NCBI GenBank assembly: GCA_942493095.1
Contig: OW818675.1
Location: 270,001-302,000, forward strand
Direction: 5' to 3'
Source of the DNA: Candidatus Electronema halotolerans
Lineage (GTDB): Bacteria; Desulfobacterota; Desulfobulbia; Desulfobulbales; Desulfobulbaceae
Length of the DNA stretch: 32,000 nucleotides
Shown here: piece after piece, positions 1 to 30,966 of the stretch
Position numbering within the stretch: the first letter of the stretch is position 1
Layout: the number at the start of each line of letters is the position of its first letter
Made by a program: the position numbers and the translations under genes
The notes under the pieces: generated by a model
Told to the model about the DNA's origin: nothing
What the model saw: the letters and a program-made list of their open reading frames with translations, nothing else
The model's database searches: none

Positions 1-64
1 TGAGCAAGGCCAGAGAGCTGCGGCAAGCGAACTGCGGCAATTTTTGGCATGACATCTTGTTTGT

Positions 65-865
65 TCATCCGCTTGAACGTTGACTTGCATCGGCAAAATT
101 CCGCACACAGCCTGCGTCATTCAACTGCAAGATGATTTCCACACATCCATGTCTGACTTCAAGATAAGAAAGCAGCGTGTAAATAATTCCAACCACGCCA
201 AGCATTTCAAGCAACTCTTCGCTGGTGTACAGGAGGCAGTAGATTGCAGAATCATAGCCGTGCAGCTCTGCTTCTCTGCCGCCAAGCATGTCAAAAACAA
301 CAGCTCCGATTAAATAGACAGCACCAGAAAGCATGAACAGCCTTGCTGTTCGTGCAGGCAGACCAAGAACAAATTTGATGTGGAGCAGAACAAAAAGAAC
401 TGTCAATAAAATGTAGGGAAGAACCCAAGGGAAATACAGTAAGCCAGTCGCGTGCATATAGCCTGACACAACATCTCCTGCTGCCTCATGCAGTTCAAAG
501 GCCTCATCTGCTGACAAGAAGAGGAAGGTGAGAAAGAGGCCAAACCAATACATGCTGTTGCGGCTGTCTGTTTTTCGTTCCAAACCTGCCAGAAGAAAAG
601 AGAGCAGAGAACAGATCAAAATGGCGGCGGCGGAATACAATGAAGGAATGTTTCTTTCGATATCTAAATCAAACCATAAAGTGAAATCGAGCACATTCGG
701 ATTGTCAGAGTGGAAAAATAAAAAAAGAGCGAGGCAATGGAGCAGTGTCAACAGGATGACCGTCAGCAGAAAAAGGAAGGCGGTCTTTTTGGCCTTGATC
801 GTTATCTGCACGATCTCTGTCAGTCTGCTGTCCCGCCCAACAAGAGCGCGGGACAGTCCTTGCAA
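65..865 (-). CDS. multi-pass integral membrane protein, unknown function
   Basis: 266-aa ORF with several long hydrophobic segments (FLFLLTVILLTLLHCLALFLFF, LYSAAAILICSLLSFLLAGL, WFGLFLTFLFLSA, WVLPYILLTVLFVLLHI, LFMLSGAVYLIGAVVF). It begins 8 nt after the stop of the 873-1454 gene on the same strand. The track start is TTG with no clear SD, so the 5' end is uncertain. No family recognised. Confidence 0.55.
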   Translation of the reverse strand: MQGLSRALVGRDSRLTEIVQITIKAKKTAFLFLLTVILLTLLHCLALFLFFHSDNPNVLDFTLWFDLDIERNIPSLYSAAAILICSLLSFLLAGLERKTDSRNSMYWFGLFLTFLFLSADEAFELHEAAGDVVSGYMHATGLLYFPWVLPYILLTVLFVLLHIKFVLGLPARTARLFMLSGAVYLIGAVVFDMLGGREAELHGYDSAIYCLLYTSEELLEMLGVVGIIYTLLSYLEVRHGCVEIILQLNDAGCVRNFADASQRSSG

Positions 866-872
866 AAAGGCT

Positions 873-1454
873 TCACTTTCTGCCTTTTGAGCCTTTCTCT
901 TTCTTAGAACCCTTTTTCCACTTTGACCCTTTCTTCTTCGAGCCTTTGTTCCAATCTCCCCTCTCTCTCCAGCTTAGAGCATAGTGCCAGATAACAGCAG
1001 GAACATCTTGCCGCAGCACAATAAACCGTTTTGAGCCGGGTTTAATGCCCAAGGACAGAACAACAGCTCCCCAGCCTTTTCCTTTGTGCTGCCTGAAATG
1101 ATGAATGATTTTTTGGTACGGCTTTCCGCTCAGTCTGACAATCTGAAAGACCATGAAGATATCTGCTGGCTGCATTCTCTCCTTGGCAAACAGCAGGATG
1201 ACCTTTTCTCTGGGAACATGGAACGCCGTGCTGATATCGCCAATATATTGCTCAACGCTTCCCGCAGCGGTTCTGTTGACTTCAATCAAAAAACTGTCAA
1301 AGTCCCGGTCGCCGGTATGAGGCAGATATTGAGGATTGAGCTGGAATATCATGCCGCTGGCCGCTGGCGGCTGCTGGCGGGGAAAATCTTTTCCTTGGAC
1401 GGAATATGCGCCCAAAAGACTGATCAGCAGAATGCTGACAGCAATTTTTTTCAT
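873..1454 (-). CDS. exported protein with Lys-rich KGSK-repeat C-terminal tail, unknown function
   Basis: ATG at 1454 with GGAGG (complement of 1462-1466) 7 nt upstream. Signal peptide MKKIAVSILLISLLGAYSVQG. C-terminus KGSKKKGSKWKKGSKKEKGSKGRK. Confidence 0.6.
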   Translation of the reverse strand: MKKIAVSILLISLLGAYSVQGKDFPRQQPPAASGMIFQLNPQYLPHTGDRDFDSFLIEVNRTAAGSVEQYIGDISTAFHVPREKVILLFAKERMQPADIFMVFQIVRLSGKPYQKIIHHFRQHKGKGWGAVVLSLGIKPGSKRFIVLRQDVPAVIWHYALSWRERGDWNKGSKKKGSKWKKGSKKEKGSKGRK

Positions 1455-1620
1455 CTGTAGGCCTCCTTTTGCTTGCTTGAAAATGCACGTTGTTCACAGA
1501 ACTTATCTGTCTGACAGCAAGCTGTCAACAGCAATTTTTTCTTTCACGCCATCCAAGAAAGGATGCCGACAGACTTGCCCTGTCCTGCCTTGGAAAAAAA
1601 AGCACACTGCCTTGGAAAAA

Positions 1621-1673
1621 CATCATTTTTTCATCTTTCTTTCATCTTGCACCGGGTAAGCTGGAAATGTAAG
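1621..1673 (+). promoter_or_regulatory. box A: tandem direct-repeat operator plus -10-like hexamer upstream of the 1734 gene
   Basis: CATCA at 1621, TTCATCTT at 1630-1637 and TTCATCTT at 1641-1648, giving CATC cores at 1621/1632/1643 in exact 11-bp phase. GGTAAGCTGGAAA follows from 1655. A -10-like TGTAAG sits at 1668-1673, 19 nt after the second repeat. Same layout as boxes B and C. Confidence 0.5.
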
Positions 1674-1733
1674 GAGACGGCGCAGGCATTGATCCTGCCC
1701 GAAAAACAGCAGTCTGAACAGGAGGGACTGGTC

Positions 1734-1973
1734 ATGAAAACAAAAATATTCGCAGGACTGATCAGCAGTGTTTTGCTGGCCTGTCTGTGGCTGGAGCGGT
1801 CAGCGATTGCAACTGCGGCAGGTTGTGCAGAGGCGCCTGCTGCTCCCCCCGCAGCGCAGCAGGCGGACGCAGTTCTGCGCATCATGAGCAGCACGAACAG
1901 TTCCGCGTTGGAAGATGAGGTGCCGGTTCTCCTGCTCAACTTGAGCTTGGACAAGGAGCTGCCGGGAAAATGA
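1734..1973 (+). CDS. small exported protein (possible lipoprotein), unknown function
   Basis: Internal ATG of the 1563-1973 ORF, preceded by GGAGGGA (1721-1727). The N-terminus MKTKIFAGLISSVLLAC resembles the signal peptides of the 2112 gene and the 2564 stub, and LLAC is lipobox-like. The mature part is Ala/Pro-rich then acidic. Box A lies upstream. Confidence 0.5.
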   Translation: MKTKIFAGLISSVLLACLWLERSAIATAAGCAEAPAAPPAAQQADAVLRIMSSTNSSALEDEVPVLLLNLSLDKELPGK

Positions 1974-1999
1974 CTCGGCAAGCAAAAAAAAGATTATCT

Positions 2000-2043
2000 T
2001 TCATCTTTCGTTCATCTTCAGTCTGGTATCTTGAAAGTATAAG
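2000..2043 (+). promoter_or_regulatory. box B: tandem TTCATCTT operator plus -10-like hexamer upstream of the 2112 gene
   Basis: TTCATCTT at 2000-2007 and 2011-2018 (11-bp phase). After a 6-nt gap comes GGTATCTTGAAAGTAT at 2025-2040. TATAAG at 2038-2043 starts 19 nt after the second repeat, so the repeats overlap the -35 position. Confidence 0.55.
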
Positions 2044-2111
2044 CATGAGGCACAAAGACTGGACCTCTCTGATGACAAACACGGCAACAACAGGATAGAG
2101 GAGATTTGGTT

Positions 2112-2423
2112 ATGAAAAGAATGATTGCTGGACTTATCGGCGGCGTTTTCTTTGCAGGACTGTTCTTGGGCAATGCGGCAGCCAGCGGCGATGATCGCTA
2201 CGAATACGGTGAATACGGCGAGCATGGCCGGTATTACAATCCCTACGGCAACGGCTACTACAACAACGGTTACAGGAATCACGAGATGTACGAGTATGGC
2301 AATCCGTACCGTTATCAGCCTGTCATGCCCAGTGTTTATGTCAATCCGTATTACAACAACAGCTCTTATGGCAACGGCTACAGAAACCATGAGGCCTATG
2401 AGTACGGCGGCTACCGCAGATGA
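2112..2423 (+). CDS. secreted Tyr/Gly/Asn-rich repeat protein (paralog 1)
   Basis: ATG 2112 with GAGGAG (2098-2103) upstream. Signal peptide MKRMIAGLIGGVFFAGLFLGNAAA. The mature part is low-complexity with two NGYRNHE(M/A)YEYG units and ends GGYRR. It shares a 29-nt identical stretch with the 2699 gene (2292-2320 = 2885-2913). Confidence 0.75.
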   Translation: MKRMIAGLIGGVFFAGLFLGNAAASGDDRYEYGEYGEHGRYYNPYGNGYYNNGYRNHEMYEYGNPYRYQPVMPSVYVNPYYNNSSYGNGYRNHEAYEYGGYRR

Positions 2424-2445
2424 GATGATTCAGCGGATAAAAAAA

Positions 2446-2497
2446 CATCATTTTTCATCTGCTGTTCATCTTGAGTTTGGTATCTTGAAAGTATGAG
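2446..2497 (+). promoter_or_regulatory. box C: tandem TTCATCT operator plus -10-like hexamer upstream of the 12-codon stub
   Basis: CATCA at 2446, TTCATCTG at 2454-2461 and TTCATCTT at 2465-2472. After a 6-nt gap comes GGTATCTTGAAAGTAT at 2479-2494, identical to box B. TATGAG at 2492-2497 starts 19 nt after the second repeat. Confidence 0.5.
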
Positions 2498-2563
2498 GAA
2501 CGGGGCGCAAGGGGCTGCGCTCCAAGACTGACAACAGGTCACGACGAAAAAGGAGGTTTGACC

Positions 2564-2602
2564 ATGAAGAAGTTGATTGCAGGATTGATCGGCGGCGTTT
2601 GA
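2564..2602 (+). pseudogene. truncated remnant (signal-peptide stub) of a third Tyr-rich-family paralog
   Basis: AAGGAGG (2550-2556) is followed by ATG 2564, encoding MKKLIAGLIGGV and then TGA at 2600-2602. The peptide matches MKRMIAGLIGGV of the 2112 gene. Box D of the next gene starts about 10 nt later, so the gene body appears deleted. Confidence 0.5.
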
Positions 2603-2611
2603 AGTCCTAAA

Positions 2612-2652
2612 TTAATCTTCTGTTAATCTTTTCTTTGCTATCTTGTTATAAA
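2612..2652 (+). promoter_or_regulatory. box D: tandem TTAATCTT operator plus TATAAA upstream of the 2699 gene
   Basis: TTAATCTT at 2612-2619 and 2623-2630 (11-bp phase). After a 6-nt gap comes GCTATCTTG at 2637-2645. TATAAA at 2647-2652 starts 16 nt after the second repeat. This is a variant of boxes A-C. Confidence 0.45.
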
Positions 2653-2698
2653 CAAAAGCAATTCGCTCTCACCCAAACCCAAAATAGGAGGCTTACTC

Positions 2699-3046
2699 GT
2701 GAAAAAGACAACAGCAGCTATAACCTTGGTTGGCTCGTTCCTCGTACTGGCACTCTTCGCGACTGCCCACGGCAGCGGATACGGCAGCGGATACGGGGGT
2801 GGCTATGGATACGGCAGCCGCTATTATAATCCCTACTATAACAACGGCTATTACAACAACGGCTACAGAAACCATGAGGCGTATGAGTATGGCAATCCGT
2901 ACCGTTATCAGCCGACCGTGCCCAGCGGTTATGCCAATCCGTATTACAATAACTACAATAGTGGTTATTATGGCAACGGCTACTACAACAATGGCTACGG
3001 AAACCATGAGGCTTATGAGTACGGCAACGGCGGCTACCGCAGGTAA
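2699..3046 (+). CDS. secreted Tyr/Gly/Asn-rich repeat protein (paralog 2)
   Basis: GTG 2699 with AGGAGG (2686-2691) 7 nt upstream. Signal peptide MKKTTAAITLVGSFLVLALFATAHG. By hand count the 90-aa mature part has 27 Tyr, 20 Gly and 16 Asn, and no Cys, Trp, Leu, Ile, Met, Phe, Lys or Asp. It carries two NGY(R/G)NHEAYEYG units and ends GGYRR. Confidence 0.75.
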   Translation: MKKTTAAITLVGSFLVLALFATAHGSGYGSGYGGGYGYGSRYYNPYYNNGYYNNGYRNHEAYEYGNPYRYQPTVPSGYANPYYNNYNSGYYGNGYYNNGYGNHEAYEYGNGGYRR

Positions 3047-3117
3047 AAGCGGGCCTGCCGCCTGAGCGAAAGGCGGCGCCATCCCGGCGCAAGTGCCACA
3101 AGCTGGGATAAAAATAT

Positions 3118-3159
3118 GGGTGGTCAGCATAATCATATTGATTTTGGCCACCCTTTTTT
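3118..3159 (+). terminator. rho-independent terminator after the Tyr-rich genes
   Basis: GGGTGGTC (3118-3125) pairs with GGCCACCC (3146-3153) at 7 of 8 positions, with a 20-nt loop, followed by TTTTTT (3154-3159). Confidence 0.5.
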
Positions 3160-3220
3160 GTAAAAGTAAAAAGAAATGAAATTGATTTCATTTCGTTGCA
3201 AGAAAAAAAGGAGGAACCCA

Positions 3221-3535
3221 TTGAAACACGTATTGCTTCTGCTGCCGTTATGTGCGATGCTGCTTGTAGGGACGGCGCGGGCTGATTCGGATGAGCACAG
3301 AGGATATGCCAGCGCAAAATTCTATGGCATCATTGATGCTTTGCCCGAAAACAACAGCATCTTCGGCACATGGCTGATCAACGGCAGGCAGGTTGCGGTC
3401 ACTCGCGGCACGGAGATTGAACAGAAACGCGGCAGAATTGCTCCAGGTGTGTATGTCAAAGTGGAAGGATATCATTCCGGGAGCGTCTTTGTCGCCGAAG
3501 AGATTGAGGTGAAGCGGGAAAAAAGGCGGTCATGA
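3221..3535 (+). CDS. secreted single-domain beta-rich protein (DUF5666-like)
   Basis: TTG 3221 lies 6 nt after GGAGG (3210-3214); the track's upstream ATG 3176 lacks an SD. Signal peptide (M)KHVLLLLPLCAMLLVGTARA. The domain is KFYGIIDALPENNSIFGTWLINGRQVAVTRGTEIEQKRGRIAPGVYVKVEG...VAEEIEVK, homologous to domains in the 3639 and 4377 genes. Confidence 0.7.
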   Translation: MKHVLLLLPLCAMLLVGTARADSDEHRGYASAKFYGIIDALPENNSIFGTWLINGRQVAVTRGTEIEQKRGRIAPGVYVKVEGYHSGSVFVAEEIEVKREKRRS

Positions 3536-3580
3536 AACATCTTGTTTTTCATCGCCATTCCATCCAGTATCTGATAAAAT
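3536..3580 (+). promoter_or_regulatory. box F: degenerate CATC direct repeats plus extended -10 upstream of the 3639 gene
   Basis: AACATCTT at 3536-3543 and TTCATCGC at 3548-3555 (12-bp phase), with a third CATCC at 3561. GTATCTG at 3567-3573. TGaTAAAAT has its hexamer at 3575-3580, 19 nt after the second repeat as in boxes A-C. Confidence 0.4.
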
Positions 3581-3638
3581 CATGCGGCAAACCGCATAGC
3601 AATAATTGGACCATGCCGTCCAAAAAGGAGAAGACATC

Positions 3639-4301
3639 ATGAAACGCGCATTCCTTTCCCTGACAGCAGCTCTTGGAGTCTTGGCTTTATTCGCAGTTTC
3701 CGCCCAAGCCAGCCCGGGTGAATATTATGAACGCGGCAGAGGGTATTATGGCAGTGGATATTACGGTGGTGGCGGAGGATATTACGGGGCAAGCAAGTTC
3801 TACGGCACAGTGGAAGCCATGCCGCCTGCCGGTTTTGCAGGGATATGGCAGATCAACGGACGGGATGTGGTGGTCAATCAGCGCACCTTCATCAAGGAGG
3901 AATATGGCAGAATTGGTGTTGGGGCGTATGTTGAAGTGAAAGGCGGCGGCAATCCTTTCATGGCCTATGAGCTTGAAGTGAAACGCGGCGGAATGCCGGC
4001 TCCGCCTCCTCCAGCAATGGGCGGCGGGATGAATCTCTCCGGCTCTGCGGGAGTCATGCCGCCTTCCGGGTCTGTCGGCACTCCTCCTCCAGCAATGGCT
4101 GGGGTGAATTTCACCGGTCCGGTGGAGTCGCTGCCTCCGACTGGTTTTTTTGGCACGTGGCGAATCGGCGGGCGTGATGTGATTGTCAATAATGGCACCC
4201 GCATCAAGCAGGAGAACGGCCCAATCAGCGCGGGCAGCAATGTTGATGTTAAGGGCGGCGGCAATCCCTTTGTCGCTTATGAAATCGAAAGCAAACCCTG
4301 A
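3639..4301 (+). CDS. secreted protein with a Tyr/Gly-rich N-terminus and two DUF5666-like domains joined by a Pro/Met-rich linker
   Basis: ATG 3639 follows AAGGAG (3625-3630). Signal peptide MKRAFLSLTAALGVLALFAVSAQA, then GEYYERGRGYYGSGYYGGGGGYYG. Domain 1 is KFYGTVEAMPPAGFAGIWQINGRDVVVNQRT...VEVKGGGNPFMAYELEVK. The linker is GGMPAPPPPAMGGGMNLSGSAGVMPPSGSVGTPPPAMAG. Domain 2 is NFTGPVESLPPTGFFGTWRIGGRDVIVNNGT...VDVKGGGNPFVAYEIE. Confidence 0.8.
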   Translation: MKRAFLSLTAALGVLALFAVSAQASPGEYYERGRGYYGSGYYGGGGGYYGASKFYGTVEAMPPAGFAGIWQINGRDVVVNQRTFIKEEYGRIGVGAYVEVKGGGNPFMAYELEVKRGGMPAPPPPAMGGGMNLSGSAGVMPPSGSVGTPPPAMAGVNFTGPVESLPPTGFFGTWRIGGRDVIVNNGTRIKQENGPISAGSNVDVKGGGNPFVAYEIESKP

Positions 4302-4309
4302 TTATTCAC

Positions 4310-4343
4310 CTGCCGGGGCGGCGCAGCACGGTCTCCCCGGCAG
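4310..4343 (+). other. intergenic hairpin with a 9-bp perfect stem and no U-tract
   Basis: CTGCCGGGG (4310-4318) pairs with CCCCGGCAG (4335-4343) around a 16-nt loop. It lies between the 3639 and 4377 genes. Confidence 0.4.
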
Positions 4344-4376
4344 TTCCAGCAGCAGCTTTCCGCAGGCAGTCTCATC

Positions 4377-4718
4377 ATGAACAGCAGCAATCTCCGCAGC
4401 ATCTTTGTCCTGCTGGCCGCTCTCTCCTTCCTCTGCGCAGGTGCTGCGCAGGCGGAGGAGCGGGAGCGTCCGCATTTCTACCAGCCAGGCGCAGGCTATG
4501 AGAAGGAGCCGACCTACACCTTTACCGGCGTGATCCGCAAGCTGCCGGAAAAAGGCAAGGTCGGCATCTGGGTTATTGACGACCGTCTGATCGTTGTCAC
4601 TTCCATGAGCCAGATTCACGGCACGGCGGCGGTCGGTGCCAGCGTCACGGTCAAAGGGGTGCTGCAAGACACTGATTTTCTTGCTCTCACCATTGAAGTT
4701 GCGGCCAGCAAGGACTGA
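4377..4718 (+). CDS. secreted single-domain beta-rich protein (DUF5666-like)
   Basis: Signal peptide MNSSNLRSIFVLLAALSFLCAGAAQA. The domain TFTGVIRKLPEKGKVGIWVIDDRLIVVTSMSQIHGTAAVGASVTVKG...LALTIEV aligns with the three domains upstream. No obvious SD. Confidence 0.65.
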   Translation: MNSSNLRSIFVLLAALSFLCAGAAQAEERERPHFYQPGAGYEKEPTYTFTGVIRKLPEKGKVGIWVIDDRLIVVTSMSQIHGTAAVGASVTVKGVLQDTDFLALTIEVAASKD

Positions 4719-4761
4719 GCAGCTTTTACTCAAACTGCTCTGCGCAGAGCAGGCAAATTGT

Positions 4762-4792
4762 GCAATCGGCGGATGCTGCGATTGTTTTGTTG
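4762..4792 (+). terminator. possible terminator between the secreted-protein array and the cyt b561/TCS operon
   Basis: GCAATCG (4762-4768) pairs with CGATTGT (4779-4785, terminal G-U) around a 10-nt loop, followed by TTTTGTTG. Confidence 0.35.
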
Positions 4793-4840
4793 TCGTCATG
4801 CCTTCAAATTCTCTCACAAAAAAACAAGGAGGAGTAAAAA

Positions 4841-5434
4841 ATGAGTGCCACCGCACCTGAAACCGCCCCGCTGGGCACACCGGTCCGCTTCTGGCATTTG
4901 GCCATGATTGTCTTGGTGCTTGCCGCACTGTTCACTGGCGAGGGAGCTGATGACTATAAAAAAGTGGAACATGCCGGATTCCTTCTCCACGGCAGGGTCG
5001 GCCTGTCTGTGTTCACCGCGCTCTGCCTGTATTTTTTGTACGGTCTGATCGGGCCGCAAGGACACCGACTTTCCAGCTGGTTTCCCTTCACAGGAGCACG
5101 GCTGCGGCAGACTGGCAAGGATCTGGCCGTGCTGACCCGCTTCAAGCTGCCGGAACACAATCGGCGGCAGGGCCTGGCTGGCTTGGTGCAGTTTTTCGGC
5201 CTGCTGGTTTTTTCCTGGCTTGCAGTCACTGGCAGTCTGATGTATTTTTTTATGGAGCGGGGTGCCAAGGCGCAGGGCCTCATGCACGCGGTCAAAGAGG
5301 CGCATGAAGCCGGGACCGTGCTGATTTTCGTCTATTTAGCCCTGCATGTCGGGGCCGTGATCGCGCACTCGCTGACCGGGCATCACGTCTGGCAGGACAT
5401 TTTCTTCCTGAAAAAGGAGCCAGGGGAATCTTGA
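4841..5434 (+). CDS. cytochrome b561-family (CybB/YceJ-like) di-haem membrane protein
   Basis: AAGGAGGAG lies upstream. There are four TM segments with His residues in the pattern of bacterial cytochrome b561: RFWHL in TM1, LLHGRVG in TM2, EAHEAG before TM4 and LHVGAVIAHSL in TM4. The stop at 5432-5434 is 1 nt before the response regulator start. Confidence 0.7.
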   Translation: MSATAPETAPLGTPVRFWHLAMIVLVLAALFTGEGADDYKKVEHAGFLLHGRVGLSVFTALCLYFLYGLIGPQGHRLSSWFPFTGARLRQTGKDLAVLTRFKLPEHNRRQGLAGLVQFFGLLVFSWLAVTGSLMYFFMERGAKAQGLMHAVKEAHEAGTVLIFVYLALHVGAVIAHSLTGHHVWQDIFFLKKEPGES

Positions 5435-5435
5435 A

Positions 5436-6110
5436 ATGAAAATTCTGGTGGTTGAGGATGAGAGGCGGCTGACGGCTCTGCTCAAAAAAGGTCTGGAGGA
5501 AAACGCCTTTGTCGTCGATGTCTGTTATGACGGCGCGGAAGGACTGTACTTAGTCGAAACCTCGCCTTATGATGCGGTGGTGCTGGATGTCATGATGCCC
5601 AAGATGGACGGCTTCACCATGCTGCGCCGGATGCGGGAGCAGGGCCTTGAAACGCCGGTCATCATGCTCACTGCCAGAGGCGAGGTGGATAACCGGATCA
5701 AAGGGCTGAACACCGGCGCGGATGACTATCTGCCCAAGCCCTTTGATTTTGCTGAACTGCTTGCCCGGCTGACTGCAATTATCCGGCGGAACAAGGGCCA
5801 GTCCGCCTCGCAGGTGTGCATTGCTGATCTGTACATGGATATAAATTCCAAAACCGTGGCCAGAAGCGGGGTTGACATTCCGCTCACCGCCAAGGAGTAT
5901 GCGATTCTCGAATATCTCGCCCTGAACAAAGGCCGGGTGGTCAGCCGGACGGAATTCTCCGAGCATATTTATGATATGAATTTCGACTTGGACAGCAACA
6001 TCATTGATGTCTATATCAACCGCCTGCGCAATAAAATTGACAAAGGCCATGCCTGCCCCCTGATTCACACCAAACGGGGCGAGGGCTACATTTTGAGCGA
6101 GGAGCTGTGA
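5436..6110 (+). CDS. OmpR/PhoB-family response regulator, CusR/CopR-like
   Basis: Receiver motifs are MKILVVEDE, VVLDVMMPKMDG and LTARGEVDNRIKGLNTGADDYLPKPFDFAELLARL. The C-terminal winged-helix domain contains LTAKEYAILEYL and IHTKRGEGY. The sequence closely resembles E. coli CusR from memory. Confidence 0.95.
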   Translation: MKILVVEDERRLTALLKKGLEENAFVVDVCYDGAEGLYLVETSPYDAVVLDVMMPKMDGFTMLRRMREQGLETPVIMLTARGEVDNRIKGLNTGADDYLPKPFDFAELLARLTAIIRRNKGQSASQVCIADLYMDINSKTVARSGVDIPLTAKEYAILEYLALNKGRVVSRTEFSEHIYDMNFDLDSNIIDVYINRLRNKIDKGHACPLIHTKRGEGYILSEEL

Positions 6111-7516
6111 TCCTGATCAACTCCATCAAGGGCCGTCTGCTGCTCTGGATTTTTATTTCTGTCACCATCCTGTTTGCCGGTTTTGGCTATGCCCTGCACC
6201 TCAAGCTCCATTATGTGGTCGAGGAGTCGCTGGACCGGATGCTTCATGCCAATCTCCAGTTTGTCAAGGGGCTGGTGCACAGTCATGACGGCGTGACTAT
6301 TGAGTGCGAGTCCAATGAATTCATGCAGGGGGATTACATGACCCCGGACTCCGGCCACTATTACAAGGTCTTTCTTGACGGCGAGCTGCTCGCGGCGGCA
6401 GATTCCCTGCCGGATAAAAATTTCAATCTCACGCAGGGCGAGCCGCTGGAGCATCATGCCAGAGCCAAGGAATGGGTCTATCAGGCCAAGGGCGCGAACG
6501 GCGAGCCGCTGCGGGTATTGCGGCATGATTTCAAGTTCATGGGCAAAGATGTCCGCATTGAGTTGGCCGAGGATATCAATGAGAGCATGGTGATGATTCA
6601 CCGTCTAAGCAATTACTTCCTGATTGTCACCCCAGTGGTGATTATGCTGATTGCCTTGATCAGCATAACCATCGCCTCCCTGTCGCTGCGGCCTTTGGAT
6701 AGATTTTCTGTCACCTTGGAACAGATCAGTCATAAAAATTTAGATGTCCGGCTGGCGGAACAGACTCAAGTGCGGGAGCTGCAGCGGCTGGCAAAAAAAT
6801 TCAATTCTCTGATGGCCCGGCTCCAGCAGGCTTTTGAGGCGGAAAAGCATCTGCTCGGCGATGCGGCCCATGAACTGAAAACGCCGCTGGCCGTGATCAA
6901 GGCCGAATGCGACATTTCCCTGAGCAGGAGCAGAGCGGCGGATCAGTATGCGGGCAGCCTCAGGGAAGTGCGGACTGTGGCAGACACCATGCTGGAGCAG
7001 ATCAATGGTTTGCTGATACTGACCCGTTTAGATTCCGGCATTTTGGATGCCGGGACCTTTGAGCAGCTTTCTCTGAACAGCTGTGTGGAAAATGCGGTGC
7101 GGATGGCCGAGCCGCTGGCCAAGAAAAAAAACATTGCCATCAGCATTGCCCAGAACAGCGAGCTGACCGTCTTGGGCGACAAGGACACCCTGACTGAGGC
7201 AGTGCTCAATCTTGTTGAAAACGCGATTAAATACAACCACCCTGGCGGCTTTGTCGCGGTCAAGCTGACCAAGCGGGCGGCGATGGCGGAAATCGTGGTC
7301 ATTGACACCGGCATCGGCATCAGCGAGGAGGATCGGACGCGGATTTTTGACCGGTTCTACCGTTCTGCTGAGGCCCGCAATGCGGAAGGAAGCGGCTTGG
7401 GTCTGAGCATAGTCCGAGCCATTGCCCAAACGCATCATGGTGAAATTACTGTTGAAACACCACCAGACGGCGGCAGTCGCTTCATCCTCAAACTGCCGCT
7501 GACTGTCTCAGCTTGA
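6107..7516 (+). CDS. sensor histidine kinase, CusS/CopS-like (two TM segments, periplasmic domain, HAMP, HisKA, HATPase)
   Basis: GTG 6107 overlaps the regulator stop (GTGA). TM1 is LLLWIFISVTILFAGF and TM2 is LIVTPVVIMLIALISITIASL. H-box is AAHELKTPLA, N-box is ENAIKYN, and the G-boxes are DTGIGI and GSGLGLSIV. Confidence 0.92.
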   Translation: MILINSIKGRLLLWIFISVTILFAGFGYALHLKLHYVVEESLDRMLHANLQFVKGLVHSHDGVTIECESNEFMQGDYMTPDSGHYYKVFLDGELLAAADSLPDKNFNLTQGEPLEHHARAKEWVYQAKGANGEPLRVLRHDFKFMGKDVRIELAEDINESMVMIHRLSNYFLIVTPVVIMLIALISITIASLSLRPLDRFSVTLEQISHKNLDVRLAEQTQVRELQRLAKKFNSLMARLQQAFEAEKHLLGDAAHELKTPLAVIKAECDISLSRSRAADQYAGSLREVRTVADTMLEQINGLLILTRLDSGILDAGTFEQLSLNSCVENAVRMAEPLAKKKNIAISIAQNSELTVLGDKDTLTEAVLNLVENAIKYNHPGGFVAVKLTKRAAMAEIVVIDTGIGISEEDRTRIFDRFYRSAEARNAEGSGLGLSIVRAIAQTHHGEITVETPPDGGSRFILKLPLTVSA

Positions 7517-8323
7517 TGACTGGATCCCGCAGCTTTCTCGCTCAAAATCCCGCAGGGCAACAATAGTCGGCTTGTCGCCGCAGACTGGACAGTCAGGCCG
7601 TCGCCGCAGGCTGACCCGGCGGAAATTCATGGTCTTGGCATCAAAGGTCAGGAGCACGTCGGTGAGCAGAATGCCTGCGCCGGTGATGAATTTAAGGGCT
7701 TCCGCAGCTTGAATCGTGCCCAGCATTCCGGCAACCGCGCCCAGCACCCCGGACTGCGAGCAGCTTGGCACGGATTTGGCAGGGGGCGGCTCGTGGAAGC
7801 AGCAGCGGTAGCAGGCTGATTTGCCTGGCAGCACAGTCAAGGTCTGGCCGTCAAAGCGGAGAATGCCGCCGTGCGAGAAAGGAATGCCCGCCATCACGCA
7901 GGCATCGTTGATGAGAAATTTGGTGGCGAAATTGTCGGTGCCGTCGATGACAAAATCATACTGCCGGATGATTTCCTCAATATTGGAGGCATCCAAGTAG
8001 AGCAGCCACGGCTCGACCTTGACATCAGGATTGATGGCCTTGAGCTTGGCCTCAGCAGACTCCACCTTGGGCCGGTCAAGATCAGCGGTGGTGTGAATGA
8101 TCTGCCGCTGGAGATTGGAAATATCGACTGCGTCGGCATCGACCAAACCAATGGTGCCCACGCCTGCGGCGGCAAGATACAAAGAAACCGGCGAACCCAG
8201 TCCGCCGGTGCCCACGACCAGCACTCTTGCCCGCAGCAGCTTGGCCTGTCCTTCCGGCCCCACCTCTTTGAGAATCAGGTGGCGGCTGTAACGGTCCATC
8301 TGCTCGTCAGTCAGATTCAGCAT
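7508..8323 (-). CDS. thiF: ThiF/MoeB-family adenylyltransferase (E1-like)
   Basis: Motifs are RYSRHLIL, VLVVGTGGLGSPVSLYLAAAGVG and NLQRQIIH, with Zn-site Cys pairs CYRCC and CPVCG. I prefer ATG 8323 (GAGGTG upstream) to the track's TTG 8374, which lacks an SD. The 3' end overlaps the kinase stop convergently by 9 nt. Confidence 0.85.
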   Translation of the reverse strand: MLNLTDEQMDRYSRHLILKEVGPEGQAKLLRARVLVVGTGGLGSPVSLYLAAAGVGTIGLVDADAVDISNLQRQIIHTTADLDRPKVESAEAKLKAINPDVKVEPWLLYLDASNIEEIIRQYDFVIDGTDNFATKFLINDACVMAGIPFSHGGILRFDGQTLTVLPGKSACYRCCFHEPPPAKSVPSCSQSGVLGAVAGMLGTIQAAEALKFITGAGILLTDVLLTFDAKTMNFRRVSLRRRPDCPVCGDKPTIVALRDFERESCGIQSSS

Positions 8324-27894: not shown

Positions 27895-30800
27895 ATGAAA
27901 CTATTCGCTGAAGAGAACATTGGCAAGCTGATCATTCTCAACTCCAGTCTGGTCGGCCTGCTGATGTGGCTTGGCATTGTCGCGCACACCTTCTGGGACT
28001 CTGAGGTCAACCTGAAAATGGAGCTGGATCACTTGGAAAAGGAGCGGATCGATGCCAAAAAGAGCAGCGTTTCCGACTCGGTTGACGAGCTGATTCAAAG
28101 CATTGAAGTGCGGCGGCAGATGTCGATGAACAGGCTGCATCATAATCTGGAAAGCCAGGTGCTCCAGATTCACGCCATGATGACCCATCTGTATGAGAAA
28201 AACAAGGACAGAATGAAGGGGGCCGAGCTGAAGGATCTTTTGGTCGAGGCGGTGCGGCCTTTCAAATTCAGCAGCGGCCAGAGCTGGTTTTTCATCCGCT
28301 CCTTGGACGGCATCACCAAGCTCTGGCCGCCTGATCCTGATCTGGAAGGGCGCAGCATTTACGAAAACAGCAACGAGAACAAGGTGCATGCCTTCAATGG
28401 CATGGCTGATATCGCCAAGCAGGGCGGCGGTTTTTATGAATATTTCTGGCCCAAGCCCGGAGACGGCCAGAAGCTGCATCAGGCGGCGGCCTATCTGACC
28501 TTTTTTGCTCCCTTCAACTGGTATGTGGGCACTGCCGAATATTTGGACGAGCTTGAACACGACACTCAGCTTCAGTTTCAGGCCGCTGTCAGCCGCCATG
28601 CCGGACGCACTGAGGATGAATATCTGCAAATTATCGATTTGAACGGCATTGACAAGGCCGTCAACGAAGGCAGCCCTCTGAGCAAGCTGCTGCGCAGCGG
28701 CTATCAGGACCCGGAGGCCAAGCGGATCAAGGAGTCCCTCCTCTCCGGCCTCAAGCATGGCGGCGAGATTTTTGTCAAGTATCAGGACCGAAAGCCGGGC
28801 ACGAATCAGCTTGTTTATAAGATGACCTATTTCCGGCTTTATGACAAATGGAACTGGCTGATCGCCGCCGGTTTTGACTACAATGACCTTGAAGACCTGA
28901 TTCAGGTGAAAAAACAGGAGCATCAGCGGCTCTTTCAAGAAAAGCTGCGCATTTCGTTAGCTATTTTCTGTTTCATTCTCTTGGGTGCGCTCTGCATTTC
29001 CCTGCTCTTCGCCCATAAGGTGCGGATGCTTTTCTTCTCCTACCGGCAGCGGCTGGAGGCCTCCAACAAAGAGCTGGTCAAGGCGATAGATGATGCCCGC
29101 ACCGCCACGCTTGCCAAATCAGAATTTCTTGCTAAGATGAGCCATGAAATCCGCACGCCCATGCACGGCATCATTGGCTTGGCTGAACTGACGCTGGAGA
29201 CGGAGATGTCAAAGCAGCAGGCAGACTATATGCGGAAAATTCTCTATTCTTCCAGGAGCCTTGAGGTGATTCTCAATGATGTTCTTGATTTTTCCAAGAT
29301 TGAGGCCGGAATGATGAGGATTGAGCAGGTTCCCTTCAATCTTCCTGATCTTTTTGACAAGCTCGTGCTGATGTTCAGTGAGCACAGCCGAAGGAAGAAT
29401 ATTGCTCTCTCTCTTTCTCTGTCGCCTGATCTGCCGCAGCAGGTGGTCGGCGATCCCGTGCGCCTGCATCAGGTGCTGGCCAATCTGATCGGCAATGCGG
29501 TCAAATTCACGGAAGCCGGACAAATCATGGTCCGGGTCGCAACAGCCCGGCGGAGTGACGAGCAGGTGGAAATCAATTTTTCTGTGCAGGACACCGGCAT
29601 CGGCATTTCCCCAGACCAGCTTCCCCAGCTTTTTGAATCGTTCAAGCAGGCTGACAACTCAACCGCGAGAAAATACGGCGGCACGGGCCTTGGCCTGACC
29701 ATCAGCAAAAATCTTGTCGATTTGATGGGCGGCGACCTGACTGTGGCAAGCGAGGCCGGAGTCGGCAGCACCTTTTCCTGCTCGCTGCTTTTCCAGCTTC
29801 CTGCGCAGCAGAACAGCGGTCTTGCCGCCGACTCTGCCGACATGACCGTCTCAGCCATGCGACGGATCAGAGGAGCGCGCATTCTCTTGGTTGAGGACAA
29901 TCTCATCAATCAGCAGGTGGCGCAGGAGATTCTTGCTAAAGCTGACCTGCGGGTCAGGACGGTCAGCAATGGCTCAGAGGCGGTGGCGGCAGTGGCGGCA
30001 GAGGATTTTGACGCAGTGCTGATGGATATTCAGATGCCGGTCATGGACGGGTATGAGGCGACCCGGAAAATCCGGCAGGAGCTGGGCAGAACTGAACTGC
30101 CGATTCTGGCCATGACCGCTCATGCGGTGAGCGAGGAGCGGGACAGATGCTTCCGCATGGGCATGGATGATCATATTGCCAAACCGGTCAGCCGCAGCAT
30201 GCTGTTCAAGGTTCTGGCCAGATGGATACGACGGCCTCAGCCTGCTGCGGAACAGGCAGAGCCGCAGCTTCCTGCCAAAAGCTGCGGCCCTTCCTGCCTC
30301 AGCGCGCTGTTCCTGGAGGACAGGAAAAACGGTGCTCAGGCTGTCGAGCTTGATCTGGCCGGTGGGATGGAACGGCTGGAAGGCAATAAGAACCTGTACG
30401 TGAAGCTGCTCAAGAACTTCTGCCAAGAGCAGGAAAACATCGAGGCCCGGACTGAAGAGCTGCTGCGGACAAACAGTGTTGAGGCGGCTGTCTGTTCGGC
30501 CCACAGTTTGAAAGGCGTGGCTGGCAATATTGGCCTGCCCGGAGTGCAAAAAATGGCGGCCAAGGCTGAAGAAGCCTTGCGGGCTGGCTGGACAGCGGAA
30601 TCACAGGCACAACTGCGTCAGTTGGCCAGGCAGGTGCGGCAAACGGTTGATCATCTCAGCAGCCGTCTCAGCCCGGCGGAGAACAGCGAGGAGGAACAGG
30701 AAGTTCCAGAGAATTTTGACCGGCAGGCCTCCTTGCAGACTCTTCAGCAACTTGCCGCCCTGCTGGAGCAGGCAGACTACTCCTCGCTCCAGTTTCTTGA

Positions 30801-30966
30801 AGAACATAAAAGCATGATCCGACCGCTGATGAGCAGGCAGCATTTTCTTCGTCTGCTCCATTGCATCGAAGGCTTCAGCTTTGAACAGGCCTTGACAGTG
30901 ATCAAGGCCAAACTGCGGCAAGAGGAGCACGATGACTGCGCCGTCAGCTTGGAGGCTGCGGTCTGA
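27895..30966 (+). CDS. hybrid sensor histidine kinase (Cache-type periplasmic sensor, HisKA, HATPase, receiver, Hpt)
   Basis: An N-terminal TM is followed by Cache-like GGGFYEYFWPKPG...FNWYVGTAEY and a second TM. H-box SHEIRTPMHG, N-box GNAVKFT and GTGLGLTIS are present. The receiver has ILLVEDNLINQ and LMDIQMPVMDG. The Hpt domain has AHSLKGVAGNIG. Confidence 0.9.
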   Translation: MKLFAEENIGKLIILNSSLVGLLMWLGIVAHTFWDSEVNLKMELDHLEKERIDAKKSSVSDSVDELIQSIEVRRQMSMNRLHHNLESQVLQIHAMMTHLYEKNKDRMKGAELKDLLVEAVRPFKFSSGQSWFFIRSLDGITKLWPPDPDLEGRSIYENSNENKVHAFNGMADIAKQGGGFYEYFWPKPGDGQKLHQAAAYLTFFAPFNWYVGTAEYLDELEHDTQLQFQAAVSRHAGRTEDEYLQIIDLNGIDKAVNEGSPLSKLLRSGYQDPEAKRIKESLLSGLKHGGEIFVKYQDRKPGTNQLVYKMTYFRLYDKWNWLIAAGFDYNDLEDLIQVKKQEHQRLFQEKLRISLAIFCFILLGALCISLLFAHKVRMLFFSYRQRLEASNKELVKAIDDARTATLAKSEFLAKMSHEIRTPMHGIIGLAELTLETEMSKQQADYMRKILYSSRSLEVILNDVLDFSKIEAGMMRIEQVPFNLPDLFDKLVLMFSEHSRRKNIALSLSLSPDLPQQVVGDPVRLHQVLANLIGNAVKFTEAGQIMVRVATARRSDEQVEINFSVQDTGIGISPDQLPQLFESFKQADNSTARKYGGTGLGLTISKNLVDLMGGDLTVASEAGVGSTFSCSLLFQLPAQQNSGLAADSADMTVSAMRRIRGARILLVEDNLINQQVAQEILAKADLRVRTVSNGSEAVAAVAAEDFDAVLMDIQMPVMDGYEATRKIRQELGRTELPILAMTAHAVSEERDRCFRMGMDDHIAKPVSRSMLFKVLARWIRRPQPAAEQAEPQLPAKSCGPSCLSALFLEDRKNGAQAVELDLAGGMERLEGNKNLYVKLLKNFCQEQENIEARTEELLRTNSVEAAVCSAHSLKGVAGNIGLPGVQKMAAKAEEALRAGWTAESQAQLRQLARQVRQTVDHLSSRLSPAENSEEEQEVPENFDRQASLQTLQQLAALLEQADYSSLQFLEEHKSMIRPLMSRQHFLRLLHCIEGFSFEQALTVIKAKLRQEEHDDCAVSLEAAV

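Follow-up and report, generated by a model that had tools for sequence, protein, structure and literature searches.

Tandem TT(C/A)ATCTT direct repeats at a fixed distance from an extended -10 in Candidatus Electronema halotolerans: a putative OmpR/PhoB-type promoter module next to its probable regulator

The DNA considered here (hereafter, the window) is a 32,000-nt stretch of Candidatus Electronema halotolerans (contig OW818675.1, positions 270,001 to 302,000). Four copies of TT(C/A)ATCTT-N3-TT(C/A)ATCTT (boxes A to D) are found on its plus strand within 1 kb, together with a degenerate fifth copy (box F), and a secreted-protein gene lies downstream of each box. The features of the locus are as follows (DR1 and DR2, first and second direct repeat; all start sites are predicted):

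1619-1662, plus strand: box A promoter; weak upstream unit AACATCAT at 1619-1626, DR1 TTCATCTT at 1630-1637, DR2 TTCATCTT at 1641-1648
1657-1662, plus strand: hexamer of the box A -10 region, GGG-TAAGCT; +1 at about 1669
1734-1973, plus strand: 79-aa secreted or lipoprotein-like ORF under box A, conserved in loci L003/L004
2000-2032, plus strand: box B promoter; DR1 at 2000-2007, DR2 at 2011-2018
2024-2032, plus strand: box B extended -10, TGG-TATCTT; +1 at about 2039
2112-2423, plus strand: 103-aa Tyr/Gly/Asn/His-rich secreted protein under box B
2454-2486, plus strand: box C promoter; DR1 TTCATCTG at 2454-2461, DR2 at 2465-2472
2478-2486, plus strand: box C extended -10, TGG-TATCTT; +1 at about 2493
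2564-2602, plus strand: truncated remnant ORF (MKKLIAGLIGGV-stop) downstream of box C
2612-2644, plus strand: box D promoter; DR1 TTAATCTT at 2612-2619, DR2 at 2623-2630
2636-2644, plus strand: box D extended -10, TGC-TATCTT; +1 at about 2651
2699-3046, plus strand: 115-aa Tyr/Gly/Asn/His-rich secreted protein under box D
3118-3160, plus strand: intrinsic terminator (-20.9 kcal/mol, z = -4.0, then a U-run) closing the small-gene block
3221-3535, plus strand: first DUF5666 gene, periplasmic OB-fold protein
3537-3580, plus strand: box F promoter; three phased units, ACATCTTG at 3537-3544, TTCATCGC at 3548-3555 and TCCATCCA at 3559-3566
3572-3580, plus strand: box F extended -10, TGA-TAAAAT; +1 at about 3587; heads the unit that holds the regulator genes
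3639-4301 (two domains) and 4377-4718, plus strand: two further DUF5666 genes
4841-5434, plus strand: cytochrome b561-type membrane protein (PF01292, 65.6 bits)
5436-6110, plus strand: OmpR/PhoB-family response regulator (Response_reg and Trans_reg_C), recognition helix DSNIIDVYINRLRNK; proposed binder of the repeats
6107-7516, plus strand: cognate HAMP-HisKA-HATPase sensor kinase with a periplasmic sensor domain

The 79-aa ORF matched no Pfam family, and the 103-aa protein is identical to P0138, a hypothetical protein of Ca. Electronema halotolerans. Where the box C remnant sits here, L003/L004 hold a full 119-aa gene. The first DUF5666 gene (3221) lacks a direct-repeat box. The DUF5666 proteins match the CusF-like fold at E ~1e-3 only, with neither Met nor His in the conserved columns. 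Genes for an efflux pump, a multicopper oxidase or a P-type ATPase are absent from the locus, as are tor genes.

The sequence features listed by the first-pass annotation are all present, including the 11-bp period of the tandem repeats in boxes A, B and C and the variant repeats of box D in the same phase. Boxes A (1630-1648) and B (2000-2018) carry TTCATCTT-N3-TTCATCTT exactly, box C (2454-2472) with one mismatch, and box D (2612-2630) the A-variant TTAATCTT-N3-TTAATCTT. At up to three mismatches, five motif matches were found in the whole 32 kb against 0.37 expected, all on the plus strand and inside 1 kb; none of 100 shuffles reached five, and the scan of the rest of the window gave no further match. 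The TT[CA]AT-N6-TT[CA]AT core occurs four times, against 0.13 in shuffles. Boxes A to D are base-identical in an independent assembly (L212), which rules out an assembly artefact. An upstream CATCA, previously taken as a third half-site in boxes A and C, does exist in both, at the 11-nt phase in box A (1621) and at 10 nt in box C (2446); it is confined to the closest relatives and thus fails as a general element. Box F and two Ca. Electrothrix promoters (L087 P2, L089 P3) do have true third or fourth repeats, and the upstream feature conserved generally is an A-tract. Box F has CATC units at 3538, 3550 and 3561 and TG-A-TAAAAT at 3572-3580, as described earlier, but had been aligned one repeat out of register: the 19-nt distance given for it counts from the middle of its three repeats, and the promoter-proximal one (3559-3566) lies 8 nt from TAAAAT.

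Altogether 27 sites were collected, many of which are orthologous or recently duplicated (boxes B and C belong to a duplicated cassette), so that they represent only about 11 independent lineages; column statistics were taken from 18 representative sites in a 33-column matrix. Among these, TT.AT is conserved in 17 to 18 of 18 in both repeats, and an extended -10, TGnTAnnnT, stands 8 nt past the second repeat (TG in 13 and 15, TA in 17, the last T of the hexamer in all 18), with A at the predicted +1 in 14. TAnnnT begins 27 nt after the start of DR1, that is, 8 nt after DR2, in 26 of the 27 sites, and the 8+3+8 repeat layout is common to boxes A to D and all orthologous sites. All sites are located 24-80 nt 5' of an RBS-preceded ORF, most such ORFs having a signal-peptide-like N-terminus. 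A generic promoter scan of boxes A to D returned no canonical -35/-10 pair.

Other promoter classes were considered and discarded. A sigma-54 promoter, read from the conserved TGG, does not fit: the positions 10 nt after GG are GT or AT and unconserved, so that a conserved GC is missing at -12, and the local regulator lacks an AAA+ domain. Neither TTGAAA in boxes B and C as a -35 nor CTTGAAA as a sigma-32 -35 has a matching -10 at 13-18 nt, and the block is unconserved in L001, L085, L087 and L005. An Rfam search of positions 1-8000 gave nothing relevant.

In their behaviour the boxes fit the earlier proposal of a cis-regulatory module that they have in common, with direct repeats of OmpR/PhoB type. 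We consider it likely (probability of roughly 0.7) that the regulator at 5436-6110 activates transcription from boxes A to D and F in class II fashion and, by way of box F, controls its own synthesis; the repeat pair is probably the docking site of this two-component regulator encoded just downstream. The boxes would be activator-dependent sigma-70 promoters with one common layout: an A-tract spanning about -53 to -49, no -35 hexamer, two 8-bp TT(C/A)ATCTT repeats (sometimes three or four) with an 11-bp period, one covering about -39 to -32 and the other about -28 to -21, the extended -10 at -15 to -7, and a purine start some 7 nt further on. Once phosphorylated, the regulator would bind the repeats head-to-tail and recruit RNA polymerase, like PhoB at pho boxes. 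Boxes A to D would then serve a series of four small cistrons for secreted proteins that ends at the terminator near 3160, and box F would drive two DUF5666 genes, cytochrome b561, regulator and kinase, amounting to positive autoregulation. What we infer are the binding itself, a positive rather than negative effect on transcription, where transcription starts and which signal is sensed. Weak -10 hexamers predominate (TAAGCT, TACCCT, TAGGCT), suggesting that help is needed. In box D and L091 the C to A change affects both repeats together, which fits two copies of one protein reading equivalent half-sites; the A-variant half-site also occurs in L155/L165.

The closest layout is that of PhoB, whose 8-bp repeats with a 3-bp linker lie ~10 bp upstream of TAN3T (PMC1906773). 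Both systems share tandem 8-bp direct repeats of 11-bp period just 5' of a TAN3T -10, replacing the -35, and an OmpR/PhoB winged-helix regulator that controls its own operon (as proposed here). They differ in the half-site (TT(C/A)ATCTT here, CTGTCATA in PhoB) and in the gap between repeat and -10 (8 nt here, 10 nt quoted for PhoB), and the TG extension is usual here. It is possible, although unlikely, that the same sites are operators for repression, at which the local regulator or another protein at -39 to -21 blocks RNA polymerase on otherwise constitutive extended -10 promoters. Such promoters can function without a -35, the upstream A-tract might be a UP element, the site overlies the spacer, and OmpR-family proteins are capable of repressing; a protein at this position could equally repress. 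Nonetheless, the layout is at most 1-2 bp off the PhoB activation geometry (PMC1906773), the related AgrR has been described as activating in the type II mode and stimulating its own expression (PMC7380067), and the weakness of most hexamers also argues for activation.

The position of the -10 had been read differently in the first-pass annotation, which took T(A/G)T(A/G)AG as the -10-like hexamer; on that reading the repeats would lie at about -50 to -32 and GGTAT would be a spacer feature. GGTA(T/A)..TGAAA is indeed present, and T(A/G)T(A/G)AG begins exactly 19 nt after the second repeat in boxes A, B and C (1668, 2038 and 2492); related TATAAA and CATAAG occur in some Electronema promoters (L085 P1, P3), and positions 39 and 41-42 are A-rich. 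We nevertheless hold this geometry to be very improbable. The six columns of its hexamer carry 0.12, 0.78, 0.17, 0.38, 0.54 and 0.12 bits in the 18 sites, the hexamer lacks the final T, it is missing from several orthologous promoters (L085/L086 P2, L087, L088, L005, L090 and L091), and the only good -10 of box F (TAAAAT) is in the TGnTAnnnT register, at 8 nt. The A-rich stretch is better read as the start site and first transcribed bases, and the conserved GGTAT block as the extended -10 itself. With the nearly invariant TGnTAnnnT as the -10, the repeats fall at about -39 to -21 and the predicted start sites move about 11 nt upstream, a shift that matters for the design of footprint, reporter and RACE experiments.

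As to the protein that would read the repeats, the regulator at 5436-6110 was already named as the best candidate, and this is supported: its orthologues are accompanied by the motif down to ~40% kinase identity, motif and recognition helix are conserved together (all 11 regulator orthologues have D-S-N-x-I-D-V-Y), and no other winged-helix response regulator was found among the window ORFs scanned. The label "CusR-like" is right in that the heavy-metal family (CusRS/CopRS/PcoRS/AgrRS) scores best for both regulator and kinase, but both remain under the family cut-offs (regulator with TIGR01387, 254.6 bits, cut-off 279.2; regulator with the CusR equivalog, 220.5 bits, cut-off 420; kinase with TIGR01386, 245.7 bits, cut-off 292.55). 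Against the PhoB model the regulator scores 179 bits (cut-off 296) and against the PmrA model 193.3 bits (cut-off 330), so it is not a PmrA equivalog; TorR is outside its top 25 family matches. The closest solved DNA-binding domain is that of PcoR, which binds an inverted repeat and has Ala/Arg at the helix positions occupied here by Tyr/Asn.

What is documented here across loci is the motif itself, the constancy of its geometry, its conservation and the fact that it occurs together with the regulator. The motif is kept beside regulator/kinase orthologues in Ca. Electronema, Ca. Electrothrix, Geobacter hydrogenophilus and MAGs: the same layout was found 5' of the orthologous operon in L001/L003 (82-87% kinase identity; sites at 5645, box A, and 7453, box F, in L003), L085/L086 of Ca. 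Electronema (~65%), L088 (57%), L087/L089 of Ca. Electrothrix (46-48%), L005 of G. hydrogenophilus (42%) and L090/L091 (40-43%). L005, L090 and L091 each have a single motif, placed before an operon whose last genes are those of the regulator and the kinase. A search with the full geometry hit orthologous loci 26 times in 227 kb and found nothing in 1.17 Mb of unrelated loci, this negative control being 79 loci from a species-representative genome scan with kinase alignment. As a source of orthologues that scan was rejected, the alignment having caught generic catalytic motifs and mostly unrelated kinases; only L005 (Geobacter) was useful. In an exact-pattern metagenome scan, which includes chance matches and indicates breadth rather than a census, only 32 of the 120 loci among the matches listed carry a related regulator, kinase or DUF5666 gene in the neighbourhood. 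On unrelated contigs the exact architecture stands beside regulators that are only ~45% identical to this one, in a different type of operon, and share a (D/E)V(Y/H) helix pattern; several related regulators thus share the half-site.

This last observation, together with the fact that co-localisation is compatible with a paralogous OmpR-type protein encoded elsewhere, could be taken to mean that a different OmpR-family regulator of the genome reads the repeats, with or without local cross-talk. We hold this to be very improbable, since the motif travels with this regulator-kinase pair in every orthologous locus, heads the regulator-encoding operon in Geobacter, L090 and L091, and no second DNA-binding response regulator was found in the window. 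That box similarity is mere residue of tandem gene duplication can be practically dismissed: boxes B and C do lie in duplicated cassettes (85% identity over the 59-nt promoter segment, 76% over the RBS and signal-peptide segment), but their promoter is better kept than the coding sequence and similarity ends right after it, the 5' regions that follow boxes A, D and F are unrelated, the motif is retained across genera and orders with unalignable flanks, and the control DNA has no hit.

Returning to activation by the local regulator, the specificity suggested for it, described as possibly new, can be compared with several known systems. Heavy-metal regulators bind a 6-4-6 inverted repeat, ATKACAN4TGTMAT (PMC7380067), and the site here does differ from it, being formed by direct repeats. 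This copper box is absent from boxes A to D and F, and its single two-mismatch match in the window (3176-3191; 2.2 expected) is at chance level. The proposed DUF5666 targets may add a resemblance to heavy-metal systems, through their putative CusF-like periplasmic OB fold. The claim of novelty is weakened by the copper-responsive OmpR-type CopR of C. glutamicum, which controls its own operon from a perfect direct repeat of 11-bp period, TGAAGATTTnnTGAAGATTT (PMC3140484). Read as its reverse complement, this site has an ATCTT core in common with the motif here; the remainder of the half-site is different, as are the phylum and the targets (copper ATPase and oxidase). The half-site is also nearly the same as that of TorR, whose tor boxes at torCAD of E. 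coli and Salmonella read CTGTTCATAT, with CCGTTCATCC as box 3 (PMC9239176), against CTGTTCATCTT and CCGTTCATCC here. Both are direct repeats with an OmpR/PhoB-family reader (a candidate one here), and the torC promoter is unlike the present ones in having four boxes and a different layout. Finally, PmrA/BasR binds two hexamers 5 bp apart head-to-tail, with the half-site xTTAAT (PMC3973317), which the A-variant of box D and L091 (aTTAAT-N5-gTTAAT) matches; here the C-variant TTCAT is dominant, and the targets differ. The resemblance to TorR and PmrA boxes makes the specificity undescribed rather than exotic. Full-text literature searches found no paper pairing TTCATCTT with "response regulator" and "direct repeat", and nothing about this system in the literature on DUF5666 or on two-component systems of cable bacteria.

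The mechanism itself is ordinary and its design textbook; the regulator, the DNA motif and the target genes are previously undescribed. To our knowledge, genetic manipulation of cable bacteria is not yet possible and little is known of their regulation. What is gained for them is a sharply defined motif, a likely regulator and a small candidate regulon made up of DUF5666 OB-fold proteins, a cytochrome b561 and a lineage-restricted Tyr/His-rich secreted family. The motif makes this regulon searchable in any genome, and the culturable Geobacter hydrogenophilus holds a minimal version of the system, usable for finding the signal.

More speculatively, and with a low probability in our estimation, the motif and the (D/E)V(Y/H) helix might define a broad uncharacterised OmpR-type subfamily reading TT(C/A)ATCTT, with a core regulon of CusF-like DUF5666 proteins and cytochrome b561 for envelope metal or redox stress, expanded in Ca. 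Electronema to the Tyr/His/Gly/Asn-rich secreted array. If so, this array might serve periplasmic metal handling or redox buffering in the conductive-fibre compartment. The module was seen in Desulfobulbales, Geobacter and other anaerobes.

The paired 8-base direct repeats of boxes A, B, C, D and F, the five promoter-like sites of the locus, are confined to a small part of the window. Allowing up to three mismatches, five matches to the repeat pair were found over the whole 32 kb (0.37 expected), all of them on the + strand inside 1 kb and none elsewhere in the window; the TT[CA]AT-N6-TT[CA]AT core occurs four times, against 0.13 in a block-shuffle control. Every sequence feature listed in the first-pass annotation was present on reading positions 1-7000, and boxes A-D are identical in an independent assembly (L212). 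A + strand ORF lies downstream of each of these four boxes, and all full-length products carry a signal peptide.

Features of the locus (boxes placed on reading positions 1-7000)
1630-1648, + strand: box A repeat pair, TTCATCTT-N3-TTCATCTT
1734-1973, + strand: 79-aa ORF with signal peptide
2000-2018, + strand: box B repeat pair, TTCATCTT-N3-TTCATCTT
2112-2423, + strand: 103-aa Tyr/Gly/Asn/His-rich protein with signal peptide, annotated in Candidatus Electronema halotolerans (Desulfobulbaceae cable bacterium)
2454-2472, + strand: box C repeat pair, TTCATCTT-N3-TTCATCTT with one mismatch
2564-2602, + strand: 12-codon remnant ORF (MKKLIAGLIGGV-stop) behind box C
2612-2630, + strand: box D repeat pair, TTAATCTT-N3-TTAATCTT
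2699-3046, + strand: 115-aa protein with signal peptide, paralogue of the 103-aa protein
3118-3160: strong terminator after the small-gene block
3221-3535, 3639-4301 and 4377-4718, + strand: three DUF5666 genes
3537-3580, + strand: box F, three degenerate units starting at 3537, 3548 and 3559, then TG-A-TAAAAT
4841-5434, + strand: cytochrome b561
5436-6110, + strand: OmpR-family response regulator
6107-7516, + strand: HAMP/HisKA kinase

The first-pass annotation had interpreted the boxes as an OmpR/PhoB-type module with 5436-6110 as predicted binder, and comparative evidence (a co-occurring motif and a conserved helix) indicates that it was right in kind: the neighbouring regulator would read the direct repeats as an OmpR/PhoB-type activator site. 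In box D, A replaces C in both repeats, as it does in the MAG L091, a pattern to be expected of two copies of a single protein, each recognising one of two equivalent half-sites. The regulator had also been called the only one of its type nearby; the rest of the window holds housekeeping genes plus one hybrid Cache kinase devoid of a DNA-binding domain, so that no second OmpR-type regulator was found in the 32 kb. This hybrid sensor (27895-30966) comprises dCache, HisKA, HATPase, receiver and Hpt domains, with no adjoining DNA-binding partner within the window.

Orthologous loci were reached from kinase homologues via exact-protein look-ups, and that of Geobacter hydrogenophilus (L005) came from a genome scan. 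The operon is syntenic in the close relatives L001, L003 and L004, holds extra DUF5666 genes in Ca. Electronema L085 and L086, and in L005 and the MAGs L090 and L091 is pared down to genes for DUF5666, cytochrome b561, regulator and kinase. Every orthologous locus contains the repeat pair, each time upstream of a same-strand gene (TTCATCTTctgTTCATGTTtcttcTGCTAAAGT in L085, TTCATCTTgtaTTCATCTTttttcCAGTATTAT in Ca. Electrothrix L087, TTAATCCTcccTTCATATTcgcttTGCTAGGCT in L005, TTAATCTTcctTTAATCTTccctaTGCTACGAT in L091), and in L005, L090 and L091 a single motif copy heads the operon that ends in the regulator and kinase genes. With a full-geometry regular expression, the orthologous loci (227 kb) gave 26 matches and the unrelated loci (1.17 Mb) gave none. 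The regulator helix D186-S-N-x-I-D-V-Y193 is invariant among 11 orthologues, down to 54% identity, and 10 of these also have N195; in PcoR, whose DNA-binding domain is the closest one solved, Ala and Arg stand where the regulator has Y193 and N195. The comparative support for this predicted regulatory module is unusually clean. In L085 (767-4640), L086 (565-4711) and the cable-bacterium relative L088 (4055-8329), a same-strand gene cluster directly precedes the first DUF5666 promoter that bears the motif, and encodes a 4Fe-4S protein, an NrfD-type membrane subunit and multihaem cytochrome c7-like proteins; this cluster is absent from the corresponding position in the window.

A paralogous regulator might conceivably read the repeats instead, since the half-site seems to be common to a wider regulator subfamily. 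An exact-pattern metagenome scan returned at least 120 loci with the motif, and a regulator, kinase or DUF5666 gene adjoins it in 32 of the 120 listed. Among these matches, some are further DUF5666-type operons and about ten (L098, L205, L204, L211, L152, L177, L196, L097, L186, L179) are a second operon type, in which an ArsR-like gene, regulator and kinase precede the motif, with the same promoter architecture (e.g., TTCATCTTcgcTTCATCTTggtatTGGTAATCT), and the motif is predicted to drive genes for membrane proteins, a CxxC protein, a rhodanese-like protein and a CcdA/DsbD-like protein. The regulator of this second type shares only about 45% identity with that of the window and has the helix SNV(I/V)DVYI(R/K)NLRRK, and (D/E)V(Y/H) occurs in the regulator helix at all motif-adjoining loci among the matches listed.

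The geometry of the promoters departs from that first proposed. Over 18 representative sites anchored at the first repeat (position 0), columns 0-7 read TT(C/A)ATCtT and columns 11-18 TT(C/A)ATnTT, followed by T at column 22 (16/18), TG at columns 24-25 (T 13/18, G 15/18), TA at columns 27-28 (17/18), T at column 32 (all 18) and A at column 39 (14/18). The conserved block is a predicted extended -10, TGnTAnnnT, beginning 8 nt past the second 8-mer, with a predicted purine start 7 nt further; the repeats would then lie at about -39 to -21, not where they had been set relative to the start site. The earlier -10, T(A/G)T(A/G)AG, 19 nt after the second repeat, is not supported: its columns (38-43) hold only 0.12-0.78 bits, it has no final T, and it was not found in promoter P2 of L085 and L086 or in L087, L088, L005, L090 or L091. 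In our reading, its region would be the first 10-12 transcribed bases; a surrounding G(A/G)A(A/G)(G/A)TAT(A/G)AGG... is kept in a subset of Electronema promoters (window 1663-1676, 2033-2046 and 2487-2500; L085 P1/P3; L001 B/C) and is not general. Box F had been aligned out of register by one repeat, and fits the common register when the promoter-proximal unit 3559-3566 is counted as second repeat. The sequence where a -35 would fall is TCTTCn, a generic sigma-70 scan gave no -35/-10 pair at boxes A-D, and conservation extends to an A-tract at about -53 to -49.

This architecture matches that of PhoB-type class II promoters, where direct repeats of 8 bp, joined by a 3-bp linker, lie about 10 bp upstream of TAN3T, and the two layouts agree within 1-2 bp (PMC1906773). 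Regarding the "CusR-like" label, the heavy-metal CusRS/CopRS subfamily is indeed the best family for both proteins, although both fall below its curated cut-offs (regulator 254.6 < 279.2; kinase 245.7 < 292.55). PcoR-type regulators bind inverted repeats, and the ATKACAN4TGTMAT inverted repeat is absent from the boxes (PMC7380067), as expected from the claim that the motif is unlike the copper box. The suggested new specificity has known parallels: the half-site is close to the TorR tor boxes CTGTTCATAT and CCGTTCATCC (PMC9239176), its A-variant to the xTTAAT half-sites of PmrA, spaced 5 bp (PMC3973317), and the copper regulator CopR of C. glutamicum has an 11-bp direct repeat, TGAAGATTTnnTGAAGATTT (PMC3140484). 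A literature search turned up no description of the regulator-kinase pair, of its motif or of how DUF5666 is regulated; judged by sequence, the regulatory module is a new example of a well-known kind.

Boxes B and C are parts of duplicated gene cassettes (59-nt promoter segment 85% identical, signal-peptide segment 76%) with a diverged 5' UTR in between. Ancestry alone does not account for the likeness of the boxes, since the flanks of A, D and F are unrelated and across genera the motif alone survives. Within 2564-2700, the gene behind box C is cut short after 12 codons and gives way to a different cassette, in which box D and another signal peptide are fused to a paralogous Tyr-rich body; L003 and L004 have an intact 119-aa gene at the remnant position, and a box-D-like promoter with that same signal peptide occurs in the metagenome contigs L155 and L165, which suggests that promoter and signal-peptide modules were swapped between paralogues. 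The Tyr/Gly/Asn/His-rich proteins (2112-2423 and 2699-3046) are made up of repeats such as NGYRNHE(A/M)YEYG and NPYYNN, contain no Pfam domain and have merely 26 relatives among 5.8 billion clusters, Ca. Electronema halotolerans being the sole named source; their Tyr, His and Glu residues may bind metals or be redox-active.

The DUF5666 domain was confidently modelled as a small beta-barrel (pLDDT about 95 over residues 31-100), whose best PDB matches are E. coli CusF, a periplasmic Cu/Ag chaperone, at marginal E-values (1e-3 to 5e-3), then generic OB folds. CusF ligands are His and Met; neither residue is among the conserved DUF5666 columns, in which Trp51 is invariant, and the N-terminal linkers are rich in His, Asp, Glu, Tyr and Gly.

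Alone among the genes of the block, the first DUF5666 gene (3221) lacks a direct-repeat box. Between the terminator and this gene lies a perfect palindrome with 10-bp arms, GAAATGAAAT-TG-ATTTCATTTC (3173-3194), which holds the TTCAT half-site in inverted 6-4-6 geometry (ATGAAAttgaTTTCAT) and is the sole window match, with two mismatches, to a CopR/AgrR-type box (2.2 expected by chance). L003 shares this palindrome, while L001 carries another one at the equivalent place; the window element may serve as an alternative site for a regulator or form an RNA hairpin. Two hairpins were also read in the box-F transcription unit: CTGCCGGGG...CCCCGGCAG in intergenic 4302-4376, which lacks a U-run, and CAATCG-N10-CGATTG with TTTTGTTG behind it in intergenic 4719-4840; the latter might attenuate transcription before it reaches the cytochrome b561, regulator and kinase genes.
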